A DNA stretch of 64,000 nt from an uncultured Anaerolineae bacterium (lineage in GTDB: Bacteria > Chloroflexota > Anaerolineae > CG2-30-64-16), in assembly GCA_937124585.1 (NCBI GenBank), contig CAKZKT010000051.1, positions 16,398-80,397 on the forward strand. The letters run 5' to 3'. The notes below the pieces were generated by a model. That model did not search any database and was not told where the DNA came from. It was given only the letters and a program-made list of their open reading frames with translations. A program made the translations under genes and the position numbers. This document shows, in pieces, positions 5,561-61,044 of this stretch; within the stretch, counting starts at the first letter, position 1, and each line of letters opens with the position of its first letter.

Positions 5561-7496
5561 TTACTTCACGCCCGTCGGCTGGAGGCCGCCCACCCACTTG
5601 CCGGTGGTGGGGGACTGATAGCCGGTGATGACCAGGTTAAACGTGGCCCACCAGCTGACCGGCATGTTCCACGGATCCTCGGCCGAGGGGAAGCCCTTCC
5701 AGTAGGTATAGTTGAAGGGCACCAGGGCCGGGGCCTGGACGACCGGCACCACCGGCAGCTGCTCGAACCAGATGGCCATCGCCTTCTTGTACTGCTCCTT
5801 GACCTTCTCGACCTCGGTCGGCGGGGTCTTGCCCATCTCATCTACGATGGCATCGAACTCCGCGTTCTTGAAGCGGAAGGAGTTGCGCTCGTACCAGGGC
5901 GCGGGCTCGCCCAGGGGCACGTAGTTGGCGCCATGGAAGAGCCACAGGTTATCGTAGATGTAGCCGGGGCAGAACGAATGCAGCTTGAGGTCGTACTGCC
6001 CGCGCAGCAGGGCATCGGCCAGCGGGCTGCCGGTCATGGACTGGATCTTGACACCGATGCCGGCGGCGCGCAGCTGATCGGCCAGCACCGCGGACACCTT
6101 CATCTCCTCGCCCGAGTTGCTGTCCACCACATAGATCAGCTCCAGCTTCTTGCCGTCGGCGGTGGTCCAGTCGTTGCCGACCTTCTTGAGGCCGGCGGCC
6201 GCCAGGAGCTCGGCCGCTTTCTTGGTGTCGGTCGCATCGGCAGGATACTTCGCACGCAGGTCCTGGATCGCGTCGAAGTAGGGCTTCAGGCCATCGTAGA
6301 AGGGCCACACGCCCCAGGTCGGGGTGGTCGTTCCCTCATACGCCAGGTTGACGATGGCCTTGCGGTCAATCAGGTAGGAAATCGCCCAGCGCACTTCCTT
6401 TTGATCCAGCGGCGGCTTGGCGTTCTGCACCATCAGCGCCCGCGGGCAGGGATCCAGCCAGGCATAGGGCGGATCTTTGGTCCACGCGCGCAGGTTCGGA
6501 TTGCGCCGCGCGACCTCCTTGAAGGAACCGAGCGAGAGCTTTCCGATGAAGGGGGTATCAATTTCGTTGGCGGCCAGGGCCAGCGCGATGTTCGTGTCGT
6601 CGCCGATGTACTGGAAGTTGATGGTCTTGGGGGCCGGCTTGACGCCGAAGACCTTCGTCCCCCACCAGTCATCGCGTCGCTCATAGACGAACGCGGTCTC
6701 GGTGGCGCGCACGAGCTTGTACGGCCCGGTGCCAACAGGCTGCGAGTTCTTGAAGGTCAGCGGGTCCTGGCCTTCCCAGATGTGCTTCGGCAGGATGGTG
6801 ATGCCGCCCCAGATGCCCACTGCCGGGAATGCCTCGCGGATGAGATGGAAGCGCGGGTTGGGCTTTGTGAGCTCGAACTTGACGGTGGTATCGTCCACTT
6901 TCGTGGCGGCCTTCACCCAGGTGTTCGCCTCGGCCGCCCAGGTCATGCCTGGGTTCTTCTTCAGCAGCTCATAGGTGAAGACGACGTCATCGGCCGTGAA
7001 CGGCTTGCCGTCGCTCCAGGTGACGCCCTTCCGCAGGTTGACGGTGATGCTCGTGAAATCGGCGTTGTACTCGTATTTCTCCGCCAGCCAGGGGATGTAC
7101 TCGCCGGTCTGCAGGTTGTTGTAGAAGAAGTACTCGTAGATGACCTGATGGATGCCGGTTCCAGAGCGGCTGACACCCGGCGCGTAGATGTTCAGGTTGG
7201 TGGGATCGGCCACCCGGCCACCGAGCGCGACGTTGAGGGTCTCCGCGCGCGCCAATCGTTCCGGGCTGATCGGCGCGGGCGTCGGGGTCACGACCTTCTC
7301 GACGATCTTCTCGACCGGCTTTTCGACGACCTTTTCGACGACTTTCTCGACCGGTTTCTCGACGACCTTCTCGACGACCTTCTCGACCGGCTTTTCGACG
7401 ACCTTTCTCGATGACCTGTGGCGTGGGTTGTGCACAGGCCACGAGGACACTCATGATCACGCTCAGAACGAGCACGATCCACAGTTTGGTTTTCAT
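5561..7496 (-). CDS. family-5 (peptide/nickel) substrate-binding lipoprotein with an N-terminal (V/P)VEK tandem-repeat linker; reading frame interrupted by an apparent +1 insertion near 7402
   Basis: A Shine-Dalgarno AAGGAGGAGG precedes ATG 7496, which encodes signal peptide MKTKLWIVLVLSVIMSVLVAC (lipobox LVAC) then AQPTPQVIEK. The (VVEK/PVEK)n repeat and the SBP_bac_5-like body (5561-7450) lie in the +1 frame. Confidence 0.7.
7293..7413 (-). repeat. 12-nt tandem coding repeat (about 10 units, GTCGTCGAGAAG / CCGGTCGAGAAA variants) encoding (V/P)VEK
   Basis: Direct inspection of the sequence. Confidence 0.8.
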
Positions 7497-7884: not shown

Positions 7885-9996
7885 ATGCAAAAGCAAACGG
7901 TGAAACGGCTATCCTGGTTGGCTGTGCTGTGCTTGGTGGCGCTGGCGACGGCCTGCACGTTCCCCTCGACACCCCCCAGCGCACCCGACCGGCTGCCGGC
8001 GCGGACCGGCGGTGTCACGCGATTGATCGTGGCGCCCAATCCGGACGGCGCGCAGGTGGCCGTGGACGGTGTCGTGCGCGGCAGCTCGCCGCTGACGTTG
8101 ACCCTGACGGCCGGCGATCACCTGATCGCGCTGAGCGCAGCCGGCTACGCGCCCTTCTCGGAGACGATCACCCTCGAAGCCGGCCTGGAGGCGACCTACG
8201 CGCCTGATCTGGAGGACATCGAGCCACCGACCGTCACATTGGAGAGCGAGCAGCCAGAGGCTCCCTGGTCGGGCCAGGTGCAGGTGCGCGCGGCAGCCCG
8301 CGACAACGCCGGCGTGGTAGACCTGGAGCTGGCGCTGGCCGAACGGACGCTGATGGTCACCGATGGCGAAGCGATCGTTTTCGCGCTCGCGCCGGCCACG
8401 CTGACCGATGTGCTGCCCGGTCGCACCTACACATTGACCGCTACTGCGACCGACGCTGCCGGCAACATCGGGCAGGCCTTCCTCCCCATCCTCATCGGGC
8501 CAGAGCAGGCCGCCGCCTCTGCGACGCCCACCCCGCTGCCCGCTGCGACGCCGACCGACAGCGCCACCCCGGCGCCGGCCCCGCCGACGGCCAGCCCCAC
8601 CGCGCCATCGCCGACGCCCTCGCCCCGGCCAACCCCCTCGCCGACCCGCCCGCCCGCGGTGACCTTCCGCGTGACCCAGGTCACCATCCCGACCTACGGC
8701 TATCGGCCGTTTCTGCGCTCTGTCACCGATCCGACGATGGGAGACTACGAGGTGTTGACGCTGGATCGGGCCGCCTACGAGGCGTCCGGTCCCAGGCCGG
8801 CGCCGGTCAACTACACGCTGCTCGTCCTGGAGAACCGCTATCTGCGCCTCAGCATCCTGCCGGACCTCGGCGGCCGCATCTACGAGGTGATCTTTAAGCC
8901 GACCGGCCATAACGAGCTGTATCGCAACCCGGTGATCAAGCCGACCGGCTGGGGGCCGCCCAGTCCGCCCTATCCGGCGGGCGCCAACTGGTGGCTGGCC
9001 GCCGGCGGCATCGAGTGGTGCTTCCCGGTGGAAGAGCACGGTTATGACTGGGGCAAAGAGTGGGGCTATAACTCGACGCGGCTGCCCGACGGCGGCGTGA
9101 CGGTCAGCCTCTTCACCGGCGACTACCGGCGGCCGTACGTCATGGTCAATGTGACGCTGCCCCCCGAAGCCGCCTACTTCACCGTGCAGCCCACCATCAT
9201 CAACCCGACTGCGGCGCCTGCGCGCGTGAAATGGTGGGCGAACGCCATGCTGGCGCCCGGCTCGGCCAACGCGCCCGGCCCGGAACTGCGCTTCATCTTC
9301 CCGGTCAGCGAGATGACCGTTCACAGCACCGGCGATCCGTCGCTGCCGGGGCCAGGGCAGCCGCTGGCCTGGCCGGTCCACGCAGGCCGCGATCTGAGCC
9401 GCCTGGGCAACTGGGGACAGTATCTCGGCTTTTTCGCGCGGCCCGCCGCGACGGGCGACTACATGGGCGTCTACGATCCGACGGTCGAGGAAGGGATGCT
9501 GCGCGTCTACCCCAGCAGTGTGGCGCGCGGAGCCAAAGGCTTCGCAATGGGCTGGAGCCAGCCGATCGGGCCCGAAGCGTACACCGATGACGGCTCCGGC
9601 TACGTCGAGCTGCACGGCGGCCTGGCGCCGACCTTCGACGACTGGCATCAACTGCCGCCGGCGGCCAGCATCAGCTGGACCGAGACGTGGTATCCGGTGG
9701 CCGACATCGGCGGCGTGACCTATGCTTCGGCGACCGCCGCGTTGCATCTGACGCCGGGCCAGGGCGGCCTGCGGGTGGCCCTCTTCCCGGTGAGGCCGGT
9801 GCGAGGCGAAGTGCGGATCGCCCTGCCGGATGCGGCGCCGATCGCGAAACCGGCTGACATTAGCCCGGCGCTGCCGTTCGACGAGGTGATCGCCCTGCCC
9901 GCGACCGTGCCGGCGCAGGGCGAGGTGACCGTGACCCTGCTCGACGCGCAGGGGAGGGCTGTTTTCGAGTATCGGGGGCCGGCCCGGCTGCGCTGA
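7885..9996 (+). CDS. Lipoprotein with a PEGA domain, Pro/Thr-rich linker and a large C-terminal domain of unknown function
   Basis: Signal peptide plus lipobox LATAC. PEGA-like RLIVAPNPDGAQVAVDGVVRGSSPLTLTLTAGDHLIALSAAGY. Linker PTPLPAATPTDSATPAPAPPTASPTAPSPTPSPRPTPSPT. Confidence 0.75.
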   Translation: MQKQTVKRLSWLAVLCLVALATACTFPSTPPSAPDRLPARTGGVTRLIVAPNPDGAQVAVDGVVRGSSPLTLTLTAGDHLIALSAAGYAPFSETITLEAGLEATYAPDLEDIEPPTVTLESEQPEAPWSGQVQVRAAARDNAGVVDLELALAERTLMVTDGEAIVFALAPATLTDVLPGRTYTLTATATDAAGNIGQAFLPILIGPEQAAASATPTPLPAATPTDSATPAPAPPTASPTAPSPTPSPRPTPSPTRPPAVTFRVTQVTIPTYGYRPFLRSVTDPTMGDYEVLTLDRAAYEASGPRPAPVNYTLLVLENRYLRLSILPDLGGRIYEVIFKPTGHNELYRNPVIKPTGWGPPSPPYPAGANWWLAAGGIEWCFPVEEHGYDWGKEWGYNSTRLPDGGVTVSLFTGDYRRPYVMVNVTLPPEAAYFTVQPTIINPTAAPARVKWWANAMLAPGSANAPGPELRFIFPVSEMTVHSTGDPSLPGPGQPLAWPVHAGRDLSRLGNWGQYLGFFARPAATGDYMGVYDPTVEEGMLRVYPSSVARGAKGFAMGWSQPIGPEAYTDDGSGYVELHGGLAPTFDDWHQLPPAASISWTETWYPVADIGGVTYASATAALHLTPGQGGLRVALFPVRPVRGEVRIALPDAAPIAKPADISPALPFDEVIALPATVPAQGEVTVTLLDAQGRAVFEYRGPARLR

Positions 9997-10059: not shown

Positions 10060-10134
10060 CGGGGCGTAGCGCAGTCCGGTCAGCGCGCTTGATTTGGGTT
10101 CAAGAGGTCCGGAGTTCAAATCTCCGCGCCCCGA
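10060..10134 (+). tRNA. tRNA-Pro (anticodon TGG)
   Basis: Manual cloverleaf: acceptor CGGGGCG/CGCCCCG, D arm GCGC-AGTCCGGTCA-GCGC, anticodon arm CTTGA-TTTGGGT-TCAAG, T arm CGGAG-TTCAAAT-CTCCG, discriminator A. No CCA is encoded. Confidence 0.85.
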
Positions 10135-10259
10135 CTGATAGCGCCAAATTTGTATCTACACCAGACCTGCGGTAAAATAGGGACAGCAGGGTGACGATAG
10201 ATCGGCTGGCTGCGTCCGGCGATCTCCTCCCCCCGTGGCCCTGCGTTTCTTCGTCAGTG

Positions 10260-10294
10260 AGGCCCTGCGGATTTCGGGAAAATCCGCAGGGCCT
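10260..10294 (+). other. Perfect 15-bp-stem hairpin (AGGCCCTGCGGATTT-cggga-AAATCCGCAGGGCCT) between tRNA-Pro and comEC
   Basis: The inverted repeat was checked base by base. There is no downstream T-tract. It could be a tRNA transcript terminator or processing element, or a comEC 5'-UTR structure. Confidence 0.5.
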
Positions 10295-10331
10295 GTGTTC
10301 AGCGTTGCGCCCTGGCCAGGGGGCTCTGCGG

Positions 10332-12587
10332 ATGACGCTGGTCTACCTCACGGTTGCCTGGTGTGTGGGCATCTGGCTGGCCCACCAGTTCTGGACGATC
10401 GGTCTGATCGGCTGCGAGACGCCCGGCTGGGCCTTCGCCATAGCGGCGATGTGCTCTGCCGGGCTTGCTATTTTATGGCGCCGGCAGCCATCTCGCCGTT
10501 GGCCCGCTGTCTTCCTGATGTTTGCCCTCCTGGGTGCCTGGCGCTACCAGCTCCGGCCATTTGTCGTCTGTCCCTCGACTACCACATTGGCGGCTTACAA
10601 TGGCTCTGTGGCCGCGCCGACTCGCGCCGTGATCGAGGGCGTCATCGTCGGCTATCCCGATGTGCGCGATACGGCCACGATCTACCATGTGCGCGCTGAT
10701 ACCCTGATCCTTGACGGTCAGGCCCGGCCCGTGCGGGGCGATGTGCGCGTCGAGGCGCCTCGTTATCCGGTTTTGGCCTACGGCGACCGGGTTCGCGCCG
10801 GCGGTCAGCTGATCACGCCGCCTTCCTTCGACGACTTCGACTACGCTGCCTATCTGAGCATCCATGGCATCCACAGTCTGCTGCGCCGCGCGCGCCTCGA
10901 GCGGATCAGCCCGGATCACGGCCATCCGCTGTGGGCGGCCCTGTATCGGCTGCGCGCTCGCGGGGCCGCCCTGCTCAATCGCGTCCTGCCGGAGCCGACG
11001 GCCGCGCTGGCGAACGGGATGCTGCTGGGCATCGAGAGCGGCATCCCCGACGCGGTGGATGAGGCCTTCAAAGTGACCGGTACCACGCATGTCATCGTCA
11101 TCTCCGGCAGCAACATCGCGCTGCTGACGGGCGTTCTCATGGCGCTGCTGGGCCGCGGCCTGGGACGAAGCCGCGCGCTGTTTCTCGTCGCCGCTCTCGT
11201 GATGCTCTATGTCCTGCTGGTCGGCGCCGACCCGCCGGCGCTGCGGGCCGGGATCATGGGCGTGCTATATGTGATTGCCATCGCGCTGGGCCGCGTGAGC
11301 ACTGCCTACGTCTCGCTCTGCGCCTCCGCGTTGGTCATGGCCTTGCTCAACCCGCTGGCATTGTGGGACGTCGGCTTCCAGCTCAGCTTTGCGGCCACCT
11401 TGGGGCTGATCCTGTTCACGGCGCCGCTCCAGGCGCGCTGCGAGCGTTTTTGCACGCGCCGGTTTTCTCCCGAACGTGCCCGCCAGATCACCGCCCTGTT
11501 GAACGACACGCTCATCGTGACCCTGGCCGCGCAGATCCTGACCCTGCCGCTGCTCGTTTACTATTTTGGCCGCCTGTCGCTGGTGGCGTTGCTTGCCAAT
11601 TTCTTGATCCTGCCTGCCCAACCGCCCATCATGGTCGGCGGCATGGCGACTTTGGCCGTGGGCCTGATTTGGGAAACGCTCGGCCGCATCGCGGCCGTGA
11701 TCCCCTGGCTCTTCCTGACCTACACGGTCACAGTGGTGCGCGGCCTGGCGACTGTGCCGCTGGCCGCAGTGGAGACGGGCGCGCTGGGCCGCCTGCTGGC
11801 CGTGCTGTACGGCGTCGGCCTGATCGGAGGACTGGCGTGGCGCCATTGGCCGCTGCTGCGCCGGATGATGCCGGCGCCGTCGGCGGCAGGGCGCTGGCTG
11901 GCGGTGGGGGGCATCTCCGGTTGGCTGATCTTGACCGCGGTCAACCAGATTCCCGATGGCCGCCTGCACATCACGTTCATCGCCGACGCGGCCGGCGAAG
12001 CGGCATTGGTGACCACGCCGACCGGCAGACGCGTCTGGCTGTGGGATGGTCGCGGCGACGGCGCCGTCCTGGCCGCCGCGACGCGCGACCAGTTGCGAAT
12101 CGGCCAGTCGGGGGTCGGCCTGGCATTCGGGCCGGATGCCGGCCGCTATTGGCCGGCTGCGCAAGTTTTCGAGCCGGCGCAGATGCCTGCCGGCAGCCGG
12201 CTGCGCCTCGACGGAGGCGTGGAGCTGACGCGGCTAGCCGCCGGCTCGGCATGGCTGGTGCGCTATGGCCGGTTTCGCACGCTCGCGCCGGCGACGCTCG
12301 CGCCGGAGGCGCAGGCCGAACTGATGCACGGCGCGCCCGCCGATCTCGCGCTCACTTTCCTGAAGGCGCCCGGCGCCGGCACTTCCACCTGGCCGACGAC
12401 CGCCTTCCTCGCCGTGACCGCGCCGCAGATCGTCCTTTGGCCGGAAGCTGCCACCTATCCGCCCGATGTCGCCGAATGGCTGAGTGGCCTGCGCACTGCC
12501 CGTATCCCCGATGAAGGCGTAGTCGAAGTGATTACCGACGGCATGCGGCTGTGGCTGCGCCAGCGCAGCGGCGTGGTGCAGCGATAA
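10332..12587 (+). CDS. comEC: ComEC/Rec2-family DNA internalization channel protein
   Basis: DUF4131-like N-terminus, a Competence domain with TGTTHVIVISGSNIALL, many TM helices, and a C-terminal metallo-beta-lactamase-like fold (HITFIADAAGEAALVTTPTGRRVWLWDG). The start is placed at ATG 10332, after the 10260 hairpin; the ORF-track GTG 10191 extension is rejected. Confidence 0.75.
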   Translation: MTLVYLTVAWCVGIWLAHQFWTIGLIGCETPGWAFAIAAMCSAGLAILWRRQPSRRWPAVFLMFALLGAWRYQLRPFVVCPSTTTLAAYNGSVAAPTRAVIEGVIVGYPDVRDTATIYHVRADTLILDGQARPVRGDVRVEAPRYPVLAYGDRVRAGGQLITPPSFDDFDYAAYLSIHGIHSLLRRARLERISPDHGHPLWAALYRLRARGAALLNRVLPEPTAALANGMLLGIESGIPDAVDEAFKVTGTTHVIVISGSNIALLTGVLMALLGRGLGRSRALFLVAALVMLYVLLVGADPPALRAGIMGVLYVIAIALGRVSTAYVSLCASALVMALLNPLALWDVGFQLSFAATLGLILFTAPLQARCERFCTRRFSPERARQITALLNDTLIVTLAAQILTLPLLVYYFGRLSLVALLANFLILPAQPPIMVGGMATLAVGLIWETLGRIAAVIPWLFLTYTVTVVRGLATVPLAAVETGALGRLLAVLYGVGLIGGLAWRHWPLLRRMMPAPSAAGRWLAVGGISGWLILTAVNQIPDGRLHITFIADAAGEAALVTTPTGRRVWLWDGRGDGAVLAAATRDQLRIGQSGVGLAFGPDAGRYWPAAQVFEPAQMPAGSRLRLDGGVELTRLAAGSAWLVRYGRFRTLAPATLAPEAQAELMHGAPADLALTFLKAPGAGTSTWPTTAFLAVTAPQIVLWPEAATYPPDVAEWLSGLRTARIPDEGVVEVITDGMRLWLRQRSGVVQR

Positions 12588-12613
12588 TGGCTTGCGACTG
12601 GCGTGCAACCGGT

Positions 12614-12665
12614 TTGTGTGGAAGTATGATTATGCACTATAATAAATAGGTCGAGACCAGGTCTC
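12614..12665 (+). promoter_or_regulatory. Near-consensus sigma-70 promoter plus palindromic operator-like site for the RAMP operon
   Basis: TTGTGT (12614-12619), an 18-nt AT-rich spacer, then a perfect TATAAT (12638-12643). The palindrome GAGACCAGGTCTC (12653-12665) sits at the predicted +1 region. The direct repeat GTAAAC(N15)GTAAAC follows, then AGGAGG 7 nt before ATG 12718. Confidence 0.5.
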
Positions 12666-12717
12666 CCTGTAAACTTGCAGAACTCGCGTAAACAGACCTT
12701 TGAGCCAGGAGGAGAAC

Positions 12718-15700
12718 ATGATCATTCGCGGCAAACTGATCGCGGAAACGCCGATCTATCGAGGCAATGCTCGCAAGACACTCTTCACCCGTGACAGCGA
12801 TGGCACCCAGCGGCTGGTCTCGCTTGCGGGTGAGATCTCGGGAACGGCCCAGGCGCTGATGGACGCTTTCATCGGTCAGTCCCGCGATGGTCGGAACATG
12901 GGGCTATTGAATCGCGCCTGGCGCCGGCTCTACGGTGACCCGTTGCCCGATGGCCTGATCACGCGCGTCGAATGTCGGCTCCCGGAAGCAATGTACACGC
13001 AGGATCGCTTTTTCGACCTGCGCATGGGCCTGAAGTTGGACGAGGACCGTTGGGCGGCCGAGGCGAATGCCAACTACAAGATGGAGACCGTCTTCCGCCA
13101 TACCGGTTTCGACTTCAGCATGATGGTCAACGATGCCGTGCTGGAGCGCGGGGAAAACCGGGTCCGGCTCTACGCCCTGCTGGAGGAGATGGCGGCTGGT
13201 CGGTTCTGGTTTGGCGCCGGGAAGAGCAAAGGGCTGGGCCGGCTGCGGCTGGAAGCCGATCTGAGGAGCCTCACGCCCGCCGCGCCCGCTTTCCGTCCCG
13301 AAGTCAACCATTTGAAGATCGTGCTCCGCTTCAACGCCGATAACCCGGTGCTGGTCGGCTGGAATTGGGGCAAGGTAGATCCGGCCGTGCCGGCCTTCGC
13401 TGCCATCGAGGGCCGGTTGCTCATCGCGGCCATGCGCGACATCCCCGATCCGATCCGCCAGCGGCTCGAGCTCGTCATCGGCGGGCCCATCCTCAGCCCG
13501 GAAGACTGGAAACGCCGGCTGGCCGAGTATCTGCCGCGCGCCATCGCGCTCTGGCTTCAGGAGCGATCGAGCAGCCAGTCTGAAGTGTGGATTCTGCACG
13601 AAAACGCGCTGGCCAGGCTGGCCAAAGGCAAATACCCGCTGTCGCAGAAAGCGCTCGACGCGGTCAAGCCGCTCTGCGAGCAGCCATTTCCCGATGCCGC
13701 AGCCGCAGAAGCGGCCCTCAGGGAGCGCATCGGCAACCAGGCCAAACGCGTCCTGGAGATCATGGAACGGCAGCAGCAGGCCGGCCACCAACTTGACATG
13801 GCCGCCTGGCACGAGGTGAGCGATAGCCTGGGCCTGGATGCCACGCCGGTCGAGACGCTGGCGGCGCAGCTGGACGATGAAACGGCCCTCACCCAGACCC
13901 TCGCCGAAGCGTGTCGGCCGGTCATGGCGCGGCTCTATCAGCAGGTAGACCAGCAGGTGGATCTCCTGCGCAGCGACGCCTGGGTGGATGCCGAGATCGC
14001 CAATCGAGAGGTACATCTCAAGATCAAACAGATGCTGCTGGAGGGCAAGATCAGCGAGGCGCAATGGATGAACCGCAATCAGCCGCCCGCAGGGATCAGC
14101 CCGGCGGCCTGGCGCAGTTTCCTGGAAGAACATAGCCGGGTGCGCTATCAGCACATCATCCATCCGGCGAACCTGCGCAAGAGCATCACCAACGACCGCA
14201 ACTTCATCGCCTTCCTGCAGAGCTACCGGGCGAAGGCGCGCCAGGAACTTTCGCAGCCGTACCATGTGGACTTCCGCAGCGGCGGCCCGTTCAATCGCGA
14301 TGTTGCACGCAAATACGGCAAGCCCTACGACACCATGTTCATGCGCATGTTGACCTGGAGCCCGGCCGCGCGCGAGGGCGCGTGGGAGATCTATATCCCC
14401 GGCAGCACCATCAAGGGCGCGTTTCGCAAGCGCGCCTCGCAGGTGCTGAAGACGCTCTGGGGCGAATCGCCGCGCGTGACCGAGATTTTGGATTATCTGT
14501 TCGGCCGCCAGGGACAGCGCGGGGCCATCTACTTCTCCGATGCCTATCTGACCGATCCCACGCAGCCCGAGGAGGTCTGGTGTTCGATGGACGGCGTGCG
14601 CATGGATCCGGCGACGGCTCGCCCTGTGGAGACTGCCAAGCACGATTACCTGTTCGCCTATGGCGATCAGCTTAACTTCCAGCTGCAACTGGAGTTGCAA
14701 GACCTCACCGAGCGCGATCGGCCCGCGCTGGCCGTCCTGATCAACCTGCTGAAAGATTTCCAGCAGGGCGACATCGTCCTGGGCGGCGAGAAGACCGTCG
14801 GGTTCGGCTGGGTGAAGGCCCGCGTCAGCGAGATCACCTGGCTGACGGCCGATCCGGCCAACAAGCTGTTGGCCGATATCCTGCCCGAACGGCCCTTGAC
14901 CCGTGTCGGGCCCTGGCATCAGCTGACGTTGCGCGACGAAGAGGCGGCCGAGGTAATGTGGCGCGCGCCACTGCCCGCGGCCACCCGGGTCGAGGTCCGG
15001 CCGCCACGTGCTCGGGAAGGCTTCATCTCGCACCGGGCCTTCGGCGGCTACTCCGGCATATTGGCCGTGGAGGTCGAAGTGTTGACCCCTCTCCATGTTC
15101 GGGAGAGCGGCGAGCCATCGCGGCGCGCGGTCCTGGCCGATGGCAACGTGAACGGCTGGGACTGCTTCTCGTTCGCGCCGGCCGAGGCTGCTCTGCGGCC
15201 AGATGCCCGGCTCTACGCGCTGCCCAGCCGCAGCCTGAAGGGGTTGCTGCGCCACATCTACGCGGTCGCCAGCGACGCGAAGGGAGAGAGCCCGGCCCTG
15301 GATCGTCTGAACCCGGCCGACAGCCTGTTCGGATGGGTGGGTGCCGGCCCGAACCAGGCCATCATGGGGCGGCTGGCGTTTGGCTTTGCGCCGTTTGACG
15401 AGACGCCGGAGCTGGCCTGGTTCAAAGTGCCCTACCCCTACGGCGGCTGGATCTGCGAGAACGGCGTCTGGCGCCAGAGTACGACCAAAACGGTGCCGAT
15501 GTTCCAGATAGACAAGACCTGGCGGCTCTTCTTCCACGCGCCGCTCGCGCCGATCGTGAAGCGCCTGGAAGATTTCACGCCCGATACCGTGCAGGCCAGC
15601 TATACACGCGCGATCTTGCCGGGCGCAAAGGCGCGCTTCGACATTCGTTTCTGGAATCTGGAACAGGAAGAGCTGCAGCGCCTCATCTGGTGCATCGAGC

Positions 15701-15933
15701 TGGAGGAGGGCCTGGCGCACAAGTTGGGCCATCACCGCTATGTCGGCTTCGGCAGCGTGCGCCTGCGTATCCTGCCCGAGAGCGTGCTGTGGGACTGGAC
15801 GAAGCGCTACACCGATCAGGATGAGGGACGCCTGCCGCTGCGCGTTGCAGAGTGGTTCGAGCCCAAAGTGGTGGCGCACCGCGCGGCGCTGCTGAAGGCG
15901 CTTGATGCGCGCGTGCTGTCCGGCAATCGCTGA
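12718..15933 (+). CDS. Giant multi-RAMP fusion protein: three Cas7-like RAMP domains plus a ~300-aa alpha-helical insert (candidate single-subunit type III-like effector)
   Basis: Domain 1 (aa 1-185): beta1 MIIRGKLIAETPIYRG, glycine-rich loop WFGAGKSKGLGRLRLE (nt ~13210-13254). Domain 2 (aa ~540-715): IPGSTIKGAFRKRASQ (nt ~14394-14441), LFGRQGQRGAIYFSDAYL, glycine-rich loop GGEKTVGFGWVKA (~14785-14823). Domain 3 (aa ~785-1050): ILAVEVEVLTPLHV, LPSRSLKGLLRH (~15222-15257), LFGWVGAGPNQAIMGRLAFGFAPF, glycine-rich loop GHHRYVGFGSVRLRI. The start is ATG 12718 rather than the ORF-track TTG 12700. Confidence 0.85.
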   Translation: MIIRGKLIAETPIYRGNARKTLFTRDSDGTQRLVSLAGEISGTAQALMDAFIGQSRDGRNMGLLNRAWRRLYGDPLPDGLITRVECRLPEAMYTQDRFFDLRMGLKLDEDRWAAEANANYKMETVFRHTGFDFSMMVNDAVLERGENRVRLYALLEEMAAGRFWFGAGKSKGLGRLRLEADLRSLTPAAPAFRPEVNHLKIVLRFNADNPVLVGWNWGKVDPAVPAFAAIEGRLLIAAMRDIPDPIRQRLELVIGGPILSPEDWKRRLAEYLPRAIALWLQERSSSQSEVWILHENALARLAKGKYPLSQKALDAVKPLCEQPFPDAAAAEAALRERIGNQAKRVLEIMERQQQAGHQLDMAAWHEVSDSLGLDATPVETLAAQLDDETALTQTLAEACRPVMARLYQQVDQQVDLLRSDAWVDAEIANREVHLKIKQMLLEGKISEAQWMNRNQPPAGISPAAWRSFLEEHSRVRYQHIIHPANLRKSITNDRNFIAFLQSYRAKARQELSQPYHVDFRSGGPFNRDVARKYGKPYDTMFMRMLTWSPAAREGAWEIYIPGSTIKGAFRKRASQVLKTLWGESPRVTEILDYLFGRQGQRGAIYFSDAYLTDPTQPEEVWCSMDGVRMDPATARPVETAKHDYLFAYGDQLNFQLQLELQDLTERDRPALAVLINLLKDFQQGDIVLGGEKTVGFGWVKARVSEITWLTADPANKLLADILPERPLTRVGPWHQLTLRDEEAAEVMWRAPLPAATRVEVRPPRAREGFISHRAFGGYSGILAVEVEVLTPLHVRESGEPSRRAVLADGNVNGWDCFSFAPAEAALRPDARLYALPSRSLKGLLRHIYAVASDAKGESPALDRLNPADSLFGWVGAGPNQAIMGRLAFGFAPFDETPELAWFKVPYPYGGWICENGVWRQSTTKTVPMFQIDKTWRLFFHAPLAPIVKRLEDFTPDTVQASYTRAILPGAKARFDIRFWNLEQEELQRLIWCIELEEGLAHKLGHHRYVGFGSVRLRILPESVLWDWTKRYTDQDEGRLPLRVAEWFEPKVVAHRAALLKALDARVLSGNR

Positions 15934-15938
15934 CCGGT

Positions 15939-16811
15939 ATGCTGACACATTTCGACTGGCTACGGCGCAGCTGCAGCGGTCCGGAATTGTTGGCGACGCT
16001 CCAATACCTGGAGACCAACCCCGACCTGCCGACGGAAGACAGCGAGATGGGACCCCCGCCTTCGGCCGGGACGGCACCGTGCGCGCGCTGCTGGATCTAT
16101 CCGCGCGCGGTGGGACGCTATTGTGTCACCTGTCACGCCATCCTCGATCGTGCCTGGCGCCTGCGTGATGTCATCCCCCGGACGATCGTGATCTGGGGCT
16201 TCGTCAATCGCGTGCCCAAGGCCCGGCCGGGCCGCCAGAGCTTTGCCGGCAGCAACATCCTGGGGCAATACGTTCACGACGAGCGGCGTTTTCTGCTGAT
16301 GTTGCCGCACGACGAACTGAAGTCCTGGTTGCACGACCTGGCGCTCTACTACGGGATCGAGTTGAAGGGGCTTTTGCAGATCTTTCCGACCACGGGCGGC
16401 CGGGCGGCCCACATGGGCGACCTGCTGGTGCGCATGGTTCACCATGAAGCGCGCTTCCCGCCCGACAAGCTGCGCATTCGCTTCTTCGCCAAACTGGACC
16501 AGGTCTTCCATCCGCGACCGTACGAAAAGGAGGGCGTCCTGACCTTCGAGGCGGCCGAATTCCTGCGCACCCTGGAGCTGGCGACCGTCTTCCGCACTCT
16601 GCTGCGGCCGGATGAGCAGAAAACTCTTTACAAGCTGCTGCACATGACCGACTCCGCGCAGTCGCAGCTCTATTGGGGCCGCTTTTGGGGCCTGCTCAGC
16701 CAGGAGGCGCGCGATCTGATCAATGCCTGGGGCATCCGAACCTGGACGGAGTATCAGATCAGCCTGCTGTACGAGTTAGTGGACTATGTTGCCTTTGATC
16801 AGCCAGGTTAA
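15939..16811 (+). CDS. Hypothetical protein with an N-terminal CxxC...CxxC zinc-ribbon, translationally coupled to the RAMP gene
   Basis: CARCWIYPRAVGRYCVTCH. The ATG lies 5 nt after the upstream stop. No recognisable catalytic motifs. Confidence 0.6.
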   Translation: MLTHFDWLRRSCSGPELLATLQYLETNPDLPTEDSEMGPPPSAGTAPCARCWIYPRAVGRYCVTCHAILDRAWRLRDVIPRTIVIWGFVNRVPKARPGRQSFAGSNILGQYVHDERRFLLMLPHDELKSWLHDLALYYGIELKGLLQIFPTTGGRAAHMGDLLVRMVHHEARFPPDKLRIRFFAKLDQVFHPRPYEKEGVLTFEAAEFLRTLELATVFRTLLRPDEQKTLYKLLHMTDSAQSQLYWGRFWGLLSQEARDLINAWGIRTWTEYQISLLYELVDYVAFDQPG

Positions 16812-17826
16812 TCTGATCCGCTACCTGATCGTCTGGCGGGTGAACAGTTCGCTGGTGCACTTGTCGCGCTGTCTCGCCACCGATGTCTCGCGCACGCTCG
16901 CCATGTTGATCGCTGAGCGTCTGCCGACGCAGCAGGCGCGGCCGTGGCGCAAGACGGTGCAGCTTTGGAACAGCATCGCGGGCGATGCGGGCGCAGCCGA
17001 CGACGGCGAGGCGCAGGCGTCACCGAAACAACCGGCCTCTCAGGCGCCGGCCGATGAAGAGGCATTCTGGCCGGCCTGGCCGATCGAAGCAGTCGTGTGG
17101 CCATATCCCGGCAAGCGCATCTATGGCCAGGGCGAACCGCTCATATGGGAGCTGAAGCTGCTCGGCAACGACGCCGACCACGGCCTGTTTTTGGAGGTGC
17201 TGTTGCCGGCGATGGAAGCGGCGGCTGTCACCTCCGACGAGCGGTGGCATCGGTCGCGCACGTTGTGGGGGCGGTTCGACATTGACAGCATCTACGTCAG
17301 CCGCGGGCCGCGCTGGGAGCCGATTGCGCGCGGCGGTCGGCTCGACCTGAGCTGCCGCGTGACGCCCGTGCAGTGGGCCGAGGGGTTCGGCGAAGAGAGG
17401 CAGGAAAAGCCCCTACGGCGTCGCCTCATCTGGCTCACTCCGTTCGACCTGCCGGTGCTCGCGACGGCCGCCGACGCTCAGGACGCGACACGGCCGGCGC
17501 GACCGGCCGTGCCGGCGCTGGCCGACATCCTGGAGGCGCTGATGGAGCGGGTGGCCGGCCTGGCGGCGGGCAAACGCGCCCGCGCCGAACAGGCCTGGGC
17601 GCTCCTCTCGGCCGAAGAGCGGGCCGCCTTGCAGGAGGCTTGCGCAGCGGGCCCAGTGGTGAGGGCAGAATTGCAACGCGCCGATTGGGCCTGGCCCGGC
17701 CGCTGGATCGGCGAGCAGACCTTCCGCCAGATCGCGGCCGTCCTGTGGCCCTATTTGGATCTGGCCTCTATCGTGCACATCGGCCGCCACACCCATTTCG
17801 GCTGTGGCGCTTTCACGTTGGTCTAG
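16786..17826 (+). CDS. Cas6-like RAMP protein (putative endoribonuclease) with a C-terminal glycine-rich loop
   Basis: C-terminal ...VHIGRHTHFGCGAFTLV (nt ~17773-17823) fits the Cas6 G-phi-G-R-x-T-S-x-G-phi-G loop. N-terminal beta-alpha pattern IRYLIVWRVNSSLVHLSRCLATDVSRTLAMLIAERL. Overlaps the upstream gene by 26 nt. Confidence 0.6.
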   Translation: MLPLISQVNLIRYLIVWRVNSSLVHLSRCLATDVSRTLAMLIAERLPTQQARPWRKTVQLWNSIAGDAGAADDGEAQASPKQPASQAPADEEAFWPAWPIEAVVWPYPGKRIYGQGEPLIWELKLLGNDADHGLFLEVLLPAMEAAAVTSDERWHRSRTLWGRFDIDSIYVSRGPRWEPIARGGRLDLSCRVTPVQWAEGFGEERQEKPLRRRLIWLTPFDLPVLATAADAQDATRPARPAVPALADILEALMERVAGLAAGKRARAEQAWALLSAEERAALQEACAAGPVVRAELQRADWAWPGRWIGEQTFRQIAAVLWPYLDLASIVHIGRHTHFGCGAFTLV

Positions 17827-19067
17827 CGTCGCGCGGCGATCACCTGCTTCAGCAGCTCGCCCAGCCGGCGGATTCCCTCCTCGATCTGGGCGGGCCGGGC
17901 GTTGGAGAAGTTCAGCCGCATGGTGTTGCGGCCCCGGCCGGGCTCGGTATAAAACGCGAATCCCGGCACGTAGGCCACTTTGTGTTTCACGGCCTCTTTG
18001 AGCAGCTCCGCGGTGTCAATCCACTCCGGGACGCGTGTCCACAGGAATAATCCGCCCTCCGGACGCGTCCACGAGCAGCCCTCCGGAAAGTAGCGCTCCA
18101 GCGCGGCCAGCATCACGTTGCGGCGTTCGCCGTAGACGCGGCGAATCACCCGGATGTGTTCGTCCATGAAGCCGTCTTTGACCATCTCCCACGCCAGCAT
18201 CTGGTTGAAGGTGCTCGTGTGCAGGTCTACGCCCTGCTTGGCCATCACCAGCTGCTCCACGACCTCCACCGGCGCGACGACCCAGCCCAGGCGCAAGCCG
18301 GGCGCCAGGGTCTTGGAAAAGGTGCCCAGGTAGATAACGTTGCCCTCCATGTAGCCGTGGCTCTCCAGCCCGGCGCGCGTCTGAAAATCGCTGTCGAGCG
18401 CCACCAGGGGCGGCAAATGCTCCCCTTCGAAGCGCAGCGCGCCGTAGGGATCATCTTCGACGATGGGGATGCCGTATTTGTGGGACAGGCGTACGATCTC
18501 CAGCCGGCGTTCGATGGGCAGGGTCGTGCCGCCCGGGTTCTGGAAGTTCGGCAGGACGTACATGAACTTCGGGCCATGGCGCAGCGTTGCTTCCAGAAGC
18601 TCGACGCGCAGGCCGTCATCATCACCCGGCACGGGCAGATACTCCGCTTGATACGCGTTCCAGGCCTGGAGCGCGCCCAGGTAGGTCGGCTCCTCGACCA
18701 GCACGCGGTCGCCCGGGTTCAACAGCAACTTGCCGATCAGGTCGAGGGCTTGCTGAGAGCCGTTGGTGATCAGCACGTTTTCCGCTTTGGCGTGGATGCC
18801 GTAGCGACACATGCGCTGGACGATGTACTCTCGCAGCGGCACATATCCTTCGGTCGGCCCGTATTGCAGGGCGTGCACGCCGTTTGTGGTGAGGATGCGC
18901 GCGGCTGCCTCGCGGGCTCGTTCGATGGGAAACAGTTCGGGCGCCGGCAGTCCGCCGGCAAAGGAGATGAGGTCTGGCTGCTCGGTGTATTTCAGCAGCT
19001 CGCGAATCACCGAGCGCCCCATGCGCTGCAGGCGCTGGGCATAACGGTTTTTCCAGAGAGTGGTCAC
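17823..19067 (-). CDS. PLP-dependent aminotransferase (class I/II, 2-aminoadipate/LysN-like)
   Basis: SVIRELL...ISFAGGLP...LITNGSQQALDL...YLGTFSKTLAPGLRLGW carries the fold-type-I Lys motif. The GTG start at ~19067 follows an AAGGA RBS; the ORF-track extension is rejected. Confidence 0.8.
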   Translation of the reverse strand: MTTLWKNRYAQRLQRMGRSVIRELLKYTEQPDLISFAGGLPAPELFPIERAREAAARILTTNGVHALQYGPTEGYVPLREYIVQRMCRYGIHAKAENVLITNGSQQALDLIGKLLLNPGDRVLVEEPTYLGALQAWNAYQAEYLPVPGDDDGLRVELLEATLRHGPKFMYVLPNFQNPGGTTLPIERRLEIVRLSHKYGIPIVEDDPYGALRFEGEHLPPLVALDSDFQTRAGLESHGYMEGNVIYLGTFSKTLAPGLRLGWVVAPVEVVEQLVMAKQGVDLHTSTFNQMLAWEMVKDGFMDEHIRVIRRVYGERRNVMLAALERYFPEGCSWTRPEGGLFLWTRVPEWIDTAELLKEAVKHKVAYVPGFAFYTEPGRGRNTMRLNFSNARPAQIEEGIRRLGELLKQVIAARR

Positions 19068-19166
19068 GGTTGTTGCAATCCTTTGTTCTGGGCGGTGCAC
19101 ACACGTCGCGACGCCGTAGAACGAGATTGATCTCGTCCTGCGGCCGACGCTCTTCAAGCCGGATGT

Positions 19167-24464: not shown

Positions 24465-24601
24465 GTCGCCCACGTGCCAGGCACTCGGCAAGATGCCTGG
24501 CACGGGAGTGGTCGCCACGTGCCAGGCACTCGGCAAGATGCCTGGCACGGGAGTGGTCGCCCACGTGCCAGGCACTCGGCAAGATGCCTGGCACGGGAGT
24601 C
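24465..24601. repeat. 3x tandem ~46-nt palindromic unit (GTCGCCCACGTGCCAGGCACTCGGCAAGATGCCTGGCACGGGAGTG) immediately 3' of rex
   Basis: Units at 24465-24510, 24511-24555 and 24556-24601. Each holds the 10-bp inverted repeat GTGCCAGGCA/TGCCTGGCAC. There are no unique spacers. Confidence 0.85.
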
Positions 24602-60971: not shown

Positions 60972-60977
<6 letters not shown>

Positions 60978-61044
60978 ACGAGGGATAAATGGGGGATAAA
61001 CGAGGGAAAGCTGAGGGATAACGAGGAATAAATGTGGGATAGCC
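60972..61044. repeat. Cluster of 5-6 GGATAA(A)YGRGG short repeats starting in the mfd stop codon
   Basis: cGGATAAacgagGGATAAatggggGATAAAcgagggaaagctgagGGATAAcgaGGAATAAatgtgGGATAg. Confidence 0.6.

Follow-up and report, generated by a model that had tools for sequence, protein, structure and literature searches.

A subtype III-I CRISPR-Cas module without a local array in an uncultured Anaerolineae bacterium

The DNA analyzed here (the window) is a stretch of 64,000 nucleotides of contig CAKZKT010000051.1, which belongs to the 164-contig draft assembly of an uncultured Anaerolineae bacterium. At positions 12718-17826 of its plus strand lies a real and intact operon of three co-directional open reading frames (ORFs) that overlap or abut. 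The three genes almost certainly form a complete interference-plus-processing module of CRISPR-Cas (clustered regularly interspaced short palindromic repeats and associated genes) subtype III-I:

12700/12718-15933, plus strand: cas7-11i; the ORF runs from 12700, and the preferred ATG at 12718 gives 1071 aa
15939-16811, plus strand: cas10i, 290 aa; a minimal, highly diverged Cas10
16786-17826, plus strand: cas6i, 346 aa; a Cas6-family endoribonuclease for precursors of CRISPR RNA (crRNA)

The assignment was made because all three NCBIfam models for III-I matched full-length and above their cut-offs, the third protein has a Cas6 fold, and the gene order is fixed. Cas7-11i scored 1764.6 bits against NF049957 (cut-off 800; profile positions 1-1074 of 1076), Cas10i scored 404 bits against NF049958 (cut-off 175), and Cas6i scored 278 bits against NF049959 (cut-off 160). 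An earlier reading, made from the letters of the window and referred to below as the sequence-only reading, had described a type III-like fused RAMP effector with a Cas6-like RNase and no local array or adaptation genes, and this description was correct. Its view of the operon as an unknown orphan RAMP system was not, in light of the NCBIfam matches; because the module is a catalogued subtype, the idea of an exapted orphan falls away, and the array-less state is the norm of the family rather than a peculiarity of this genome.

Subtype III-I was named by Makarova et al. (2025, Nat Microbiol; PMC12669027) with reference proteins from Desulfonema magnum, and its recorded distribution exceeds 160 genomes, most of them from Thermodesulfobacteriota and Chloroflexota. 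In the parts of that paper available to us, RNA cleavage is predicted from conserved aspartates, no III-I experiments are reported, and the AlphaFold3 model was built with a crRNA borrowed from another subtype (interface predicted template modelling score, ipTM, 0.75).

In Cas7-11i, three Cas7 (RAMP) domains are fused, and a helical region that resembles Cas11 is inserted. The only Pfam domain detected in it was RAMPs (6e-21). In an alignment of 76 sequences, from as many genomes in several phyla, the mean column identity was 68%, and 268 residues were at least 97% conserved, including D32/D34, D544, D614 and D821. When the 39- and 76-sequence alignments are taken together, D32/D34, D544/D614 and D821 are conserved at least 90-97%, so that each Cas7 region retains aspartates as the definition of III-I has it. 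The A3 profile of Cas7-11i matched Cas7-2x (residues 560-730) and the TIGR03986 RAMP protein, both of III-D, as well as the C-terminal Cas7 of Cas7-11e (7zol_B, E 5e-14, residues 959-1024). These links of the middle and C-terminal Cas7 domains fit the published origin, in which Cas7-11i arose from a III-D variant, separately from III-E (PMC12669027). The same source places a Cas11 domain inside the fused protein, which contradicts the claim of the sequence-only reading that a small subunit was missing.

Cas10i lacks both the HD domain and the GGDD motif, and its four-cysteine zinc finger (C48, C51, C62, C65) is invariant. Its predicted fold is confident, with a predicted local distance difference test (pLDDT) value of 89.3, and in a Foldseek search of the PDB with this model the top 35 matches were all Cas10 chains. 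This is the diverged Cas10 that defines III-I, in which the polymerase/cyclase domain at the N terminus and the GGDD site are missing and which is recognizable by structure. The sequence-only reading was thus right that the window has no HD/GGDD Cas10, and it overlooked a diverged Cas10 homolog. Neither cyclic-oligoadenylate signalling nor a DNase output would be expected from Cas10i, as its cyclase and HD parts are missing.

A model of the complex of Cas7-11i (residues 1-700) with Cas10i scored 0.65, and the best control scored 0.00; this mark was attained by 58 of 80 complexes with a solved structure and by 2 of 110 mismatched pairs. At least 55% of the contacts agreed between the model runs, and the pLDDT of the partner was at least 77. 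Cas10i is modelled in contact with residues 234-291 and 392-394, which belong to the helical insert of Cas7-11i, and the predicted interface is conserved. The modelling supports the binding of Cas10i to Cas7-11i.

Cas6i, the dedicated downstream Cas6 that is expected of III-I, has two RAMP folds and a glycine-rich loop. Its only detectable Pfam domain is CRISPR_Cas6 (C-terminal domain), at residues 242-342, and R12, Y13, K110, H132, R255, H337, G333, G339 and G341 are invariant. The AlphaFold2 model has a pLDDT of 88.3, and a Foldseek search with it gave Cas6 chains for all of the top 32 matches, led by 4ilr at 3.9e-8.

As far as the published account goes (PMC12669027), there is no architectural difference between the module and III-I: both have a fused effector of three Cas7 domains and a Cas11 with conserved Cas7 aspartates, both have a Cas10 that lacks the cyclase or Palm1 part and can be recognized only by structure, and the host class belongs to the Chloroflexota. 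The single-protein fused-Cas7 effector with an internal Cas11 is shared with III-E (Cas7-11e/gRAMP; PDB 7zol, 7yn9, 7x7a), and the C-terminal Cas7 domains are homologous. III-I effectors are, however, smaller (about 1070 aa versus 1600-1800 aa) and lack the N-terminal Cas7 and the insertion of III-E (PMC12669027). In addition, III-E does without a Cas10, matures its crRNA itself and has a CHAT protease partner (TPR-CHAT Csx29), whereas Cas10i and Cas6i are present here. A III-E identity was rejected, as model NF041225 gave 62.6 bits against a cut-off of 700, a Cas10 homolog is present, and no CHAT match was found on the window's contig. The last result agrees with the sequence-only reading, which had seen no CHAT partner.

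In III-D, exemplified by the Synechocystis complex (PDB 8s9t: Cas10, Cas7-2x, the TIGR03986 RAMP protein, Csx19 and others), the subunits are separate, whereas those of III-I are fused. The Cas10 of III-D has about 550 aa and a GGDD motif that is disrupted in Cas10i (PMC12669027), and III-D also has Csx10/Cas5 and Csx19; the III-I locus has no gene for Csx10 or Csx19. A III-D identity was rejected, as the fused protein gave 100 bits versus 161 with TIGR03986 and 62 versus 108 with Csx7. The lack of a local array and adaptation module, with other CRISPR-cas loci in the genome, is shared with array-less type III systems that obtain crRNA in trans, namely III-G (PMC12669027) and many III-B loci. 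III-G is a multi-subunit system with an HD-active Cas10 and predicted DNA cutting, whereas III-I is fused, comes with a dedicated Cas6 and has RNA as the predicted substrate of its cleavage. The available parts of the paper describe III-G as without arrays and III-G, like III-H, as without adaptation modules; their text on III-I carries no such statement.

The operon is flanked as follows:

10060-10134, plus strand: tRNA gene just 5' of comEC (Rfam, 67 bits)
10191-12587: comEC, the 5' neighbor of the operon
12614-12717, plus strand: upstream intergenic region with a putative promoter and a Shine-Dalgarno site
17823-19157, minus strand: class I/II aminotransferase gene, the convergent 3' neighbor

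Inspection of the upstream region revealed an AT-rich TATAAT box at 12638-12643 and a weak -35-like TTGTGT at 12614-12619, which may form a promoter for cas7-11i; a consensus promoter scan upstream of the operon flagged nothing. A strong Shine-Dalgarno sequence, AGGAGGAG, is located at 12707-12714, ahead of the ATG at 12718. Since this site is present and the NCBIfam alignment begins at residue 7, the ATG at 12718 is most likely the start of cas7-11i. The one sequencing run listed for this DNA is a DNA run from a hot-spring metagenome, and the listing has no RNA run. The GC content of the window is about 65%. That of the operon is 0.653 versus 0.648 for the genome, with a tetranucleotide correlation of r = 0.98, and the operon is indeed as similar to its surroundings as had been stated. 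The tRNA gene was the sole Rfam match in the window, and none fell in the III-I locus.

No CRISPR array was detected in the window with Tandem Repeats Finder, a repeat finder or a k-mer chain detector. To this can be added 80 related loci from Anaerolineae and other Chloroflexota, Desulfobacterales, Gemmatimonadota and a few other metagenome-assembled genomes (MAGs), surveyed with up to 10 kb of flank on each side (1.2 Mb in total, several contigs exceeding 100 kb). All 80 carried cas7-11i followed by cas10i, and 79 carried cas6i as well, in the same order. None contained an array of at least three repeats, and none had an adaptation gene near the trio. A consistent two-repeat mini-array was likewise absent from the vicinity of the trio in the 80 loci, where only isolated chance cases or repetitive extragenic palindromic (REP) cases were seen (e.g. 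L032:5465 and L074:4186). No conserved non-coding element was found beside the trio, only synteny among close kin and terminator or REP hairpins, and no accessory gene recurred; the largest family in the flanks, a generic histidine kinase, was present in 8 of 80 loci. The III-I module is thus a self-contained three-gene cassette. Taken alone, a locus with no array close by is statistically unremarkable, since many type III loci are in this state. The uniform lack of arrays, adaptation genes and recurrent accessory genes in the 80 loci, and the presence of cas6i in 79, go beyond the available published text. The survey of orthologous loci that the sequence-only reading had proposed yielded neither arrays nor recurrent accessory genes.

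Searches of the whole genome placed Cas1 and Cas2 on another contig only, here called C122, and the RAMP and Cas6 matches on the window's contig were confined to the III-I operon. The absence of an array, cas1 and cas2 from the 64 kb is confirmed. A SAVED search of the genome gave no match, and its control likewise had no match anywhere. The whole-genome array scan, also proposed earlier, did return arrays with Cas6-type repeats. Two are genuine (array detector, checked by eye), C122:28-293 and C123:1-259, and each is truncated by the start of its contig. Their 37-nt repeats share the same terminal hairpin and the 8-nt 3' handle ACTGAAAC; the differences between them are confined to the 5' half. 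If the direction is taken from the leader-like flanks, which are similar, the repeats end in …CCCCGNCAGGGGACTGAAAC. A genome-wide pattern search for the handle matched these two arrays only. The CRISPR-associated genes that were found on other contigs are as follows:

Contig C122: array, cas2, an RNase H-like gene, cas1, a separate group-II-intron-type reverse transcriptase (RT), a WYL protein and a second cas6
Contig C122: III-A csm1-5 and a TIGR02221 (TM1812) family CRISPR-associated protein with a DxTHG motif
Contig C27: III-D-like locus with Cas10, Csx10, fused Csx7, Csx19, the TIGR03986 RAMP protein, Csx15 and CARF

The assembly therefore has two full-size cas10 genes, one in the III-A locus (C122) and one in the III-D-like locus (C27). 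Both contigs carry the REP core of the genome at its usual density, which links them to the same organism.

Several features of C122 (locus L001) may be recorded here. Genes lie at L001:10279-12834 (minus strand) and L001:464-2785 (plus strand), and a 773-aa WYL-domain protein adjoins the array. The RT gene neighbors cas1 without being fused to it. Two of the three visible spacers (L001:66-103 and L001:218-256) are perfect hairpins with stems of 15 and 17 bp, and other genomes of the class also have arrays with hairpin-like spacers. No match elsewhere in this genome was found for any of the six visible spacers (C122 and C123 have three each).

We propose that the III-I module, which has neither an array nor adaptation genes of its own, draws crRNAs from arrays elsewhere in the genome and acts as an RNA-cleaving effector, and we give this model a probability of about 0.65. 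The guide sources here would be the C122 and C123 arrays, presumably filled by the RT-Cas1-Cas2 module of C122. The repeats would be cut by Cas6i, by the second Cas6 on C122, or by both, and Cas7-11i would bind the mature crRNA, whose repeat-derived 5' tag is expected to be ACUGAAAC. Cas10i may dock on the Cas11-like region of Cas7-11i, as the complex model suggests. Conservation and the literature on the family suggest that the complex would then cleave complementary RNA via the Cas7 aspartates. The sequence-only reading had offered three sources of RNA, an array in trans, a non-CRISPR guide or substrate, or an exapted system with a new function; the evidence favors the first, and the other two are retained as a rival explanation below.

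A number of points weigh against this model. The loading of crRNAs from the C122 and C123 arrays and the cutting of the array repeats by Cas6i are steps that we infer, the aspartates of Cas7-11i presumed to be catalytic are assigned by position, and a literature search returned no experimental paper on III-I. C123 has no copy of the REP core and is tied to the genome solely by the likeness of its repeat and leader to those of C122. The sequence-only reading had held that an array with Cas6-cleavable repeats, plus cas10 or adaptation genes, on the same replicon would make this a conventional split type III locus. Arrays, cas10 and adaptation genes do lie on other contigs, a finding that applies at the level of the genome, since a draft of 164 contigs cannot place the trio and the arrays on one replicon.

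The distribution of the family in the class also counts on this side. III-I was found in 40 of 401 sampled class genomes and in 29 of 216 genera. Cas1 was present in 26/40 III-I-positive genomes and 203/361 III-I-negative ones, and arrays with the AYTGAAAS handle in 22/40 and 166/361, respectively, a small excess in both cases; these counts were tallied by hand, covered one repeat family and include kin that are not independent. Either Cas1 or such an array was present in 32 of the 40 carriers, and 8 had neither. If resident arrays were strictly needed, carriers should show more than a small excess. MAGs, however, often lose CRISPR arrays. The repeats beside Cas1 in other III-I genomes were diverse, and no single repeat family was found there. 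Overall, the co-occurrence data neither support nor exclude the supply of crRNAs in trans.

In the alternative that survives best, the module works independently of arrays: either Cas6i would process a guide or substrate RNA of non-CRISPR origin, or the trio would form a complex for RNA binding or regulation. The array-less state of all 80 loci is what this explanation would have, and the retention of an own Cas6 in 79 of them speaks for it as well, whereas most type III systems borrow theirs, according to the available parts of PMC12669027. The small excess of Cas1 and AYTGAAAS arrays among carriers, with the 8 MAGs that have neither, points in the same direction, but this argument is blunted by the routine loss of arrays from MAGs and by the scanning of a single repeat family. 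No conserved element resembling a non-coding RNA accompanies the trio in the 80 loci, and Rfam is silent in the locus. Moreover, arrays and adaptation genes do exist in this genome, alongside two further type III systems, Cas6i has kept the Cas6 fold and the glycine-rich loop, and the published AlphaFold3 model accommodates a crRNA (ipTM 0.75; PMC12669027). We therefore regard array independence as unlikely.

A related conjecture, which we also hold to be improbable, is that III-I is an obligately array-less "satellite" effector that uses the arrays of any co-resident CRISPR system with Cas6i as the adaptor. In its radical form, the effector would use non-CRISPR RNA in some hosts, which would explain the 0/80 arrays, the constant own Cas6, and the 8/40 carriers without Cas1 or an array of the common type.

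It is very unlikely that the operon is a decaying, no longer functional remnant of a III-D system that lost its array, Cas5 and cyclase. Such a history would account for the reduced architecture (a Cas10 without HD and GGDD, no array, no adaptation module), and cas7-11i is split into two frames in a genome of the same genus (G092). In the window, however, the three ORFs are intact, the gene order is strictly conserved among relatives, Cas7-11i retains its 68% mean column identity and 268 near-invariant residues across 76 genomes of several phyla, the predicted subunit interface is conserved, and the family persists in 40 of 401 class genomes. The intact ORFs, conservation, fixed order and spread indicate purifying selection on a working module. 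The loss of an adjacent array of a conventional locus to an assembly gap or contig break is even more unlikely, since, although arrays do break this assembly and both true arrays lie at contig starts, the window's contig continues without any N over 29 kb on the upstream side and 58 kb on the downstream side of the operon, which abuts comEC and the aminotransferase gene, and 80 independent assemblies, several with contigs longer than 100 kb, are equally array-less.

The guide source of III-I and the reason for its dedicated Cas6 are the points of interest. This genome offers a compact test set for the former, in which the III-I trio coexists with two arrays of the same tag, RT-Cas1-Cas2, another Cas6, and III-A and III-D effectors as competitors. 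Like Cas7-11e before it, a compact single-protein RNA-targeting effector of about 1070 aa might also attract the developers of tools.

The operon had been thought to be a long-time resident of its site, and this holds at the genus level only. The aminotransferase gene adjoins the trio in both same-genus genomes and in 0 of 17 other genomes of the family, although some of the latter carry III-I elsewhere. Compared with the window operon, the loci L130 and L132 show identities of about 80% for Cas7-11i, 60-74% for Cas10i and 55-58% for Cas6i, with 87-88% for the aminotransferase; the divergence of the three III-I proteins within the genus is very uneven. The split cas7-11i of G092 (C13:26004-29202) changes frame near residues 337-341; either the assembly is in error there, or the gene has a frameshift or is a pseudogene.

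Many CRISPR-like matches in the genome were rejected because they belong to two families of REP-like palindromes, in which the "spacers" are repeats as well. One of them accounts for 24465-24601, where three palindromic units without spacers had been noted correctly: the 45-nt unit is REP-like, and its core, ACGTGCCAGGCA, occurs genome-wide at about 0.13 per kb, often in short tandem clusters. The second family (TTTGGATTGCGGCAGCGTGCTGCCGCTTT-like) forms tandem clusters at C85:26098-26713, C140:22365-22896, C119:57808-58316 and C95:5329-5607, often at contig ends. Two further tandem repeats of the window are unrelated to III-I. One, at 7290-7417, is a 12/36-nt unit inside a large plus-strand ORF (with 7885-9996 downstream), and the other, at 60972-61041, is an 11/22-nt GGATAAACGAG unit.

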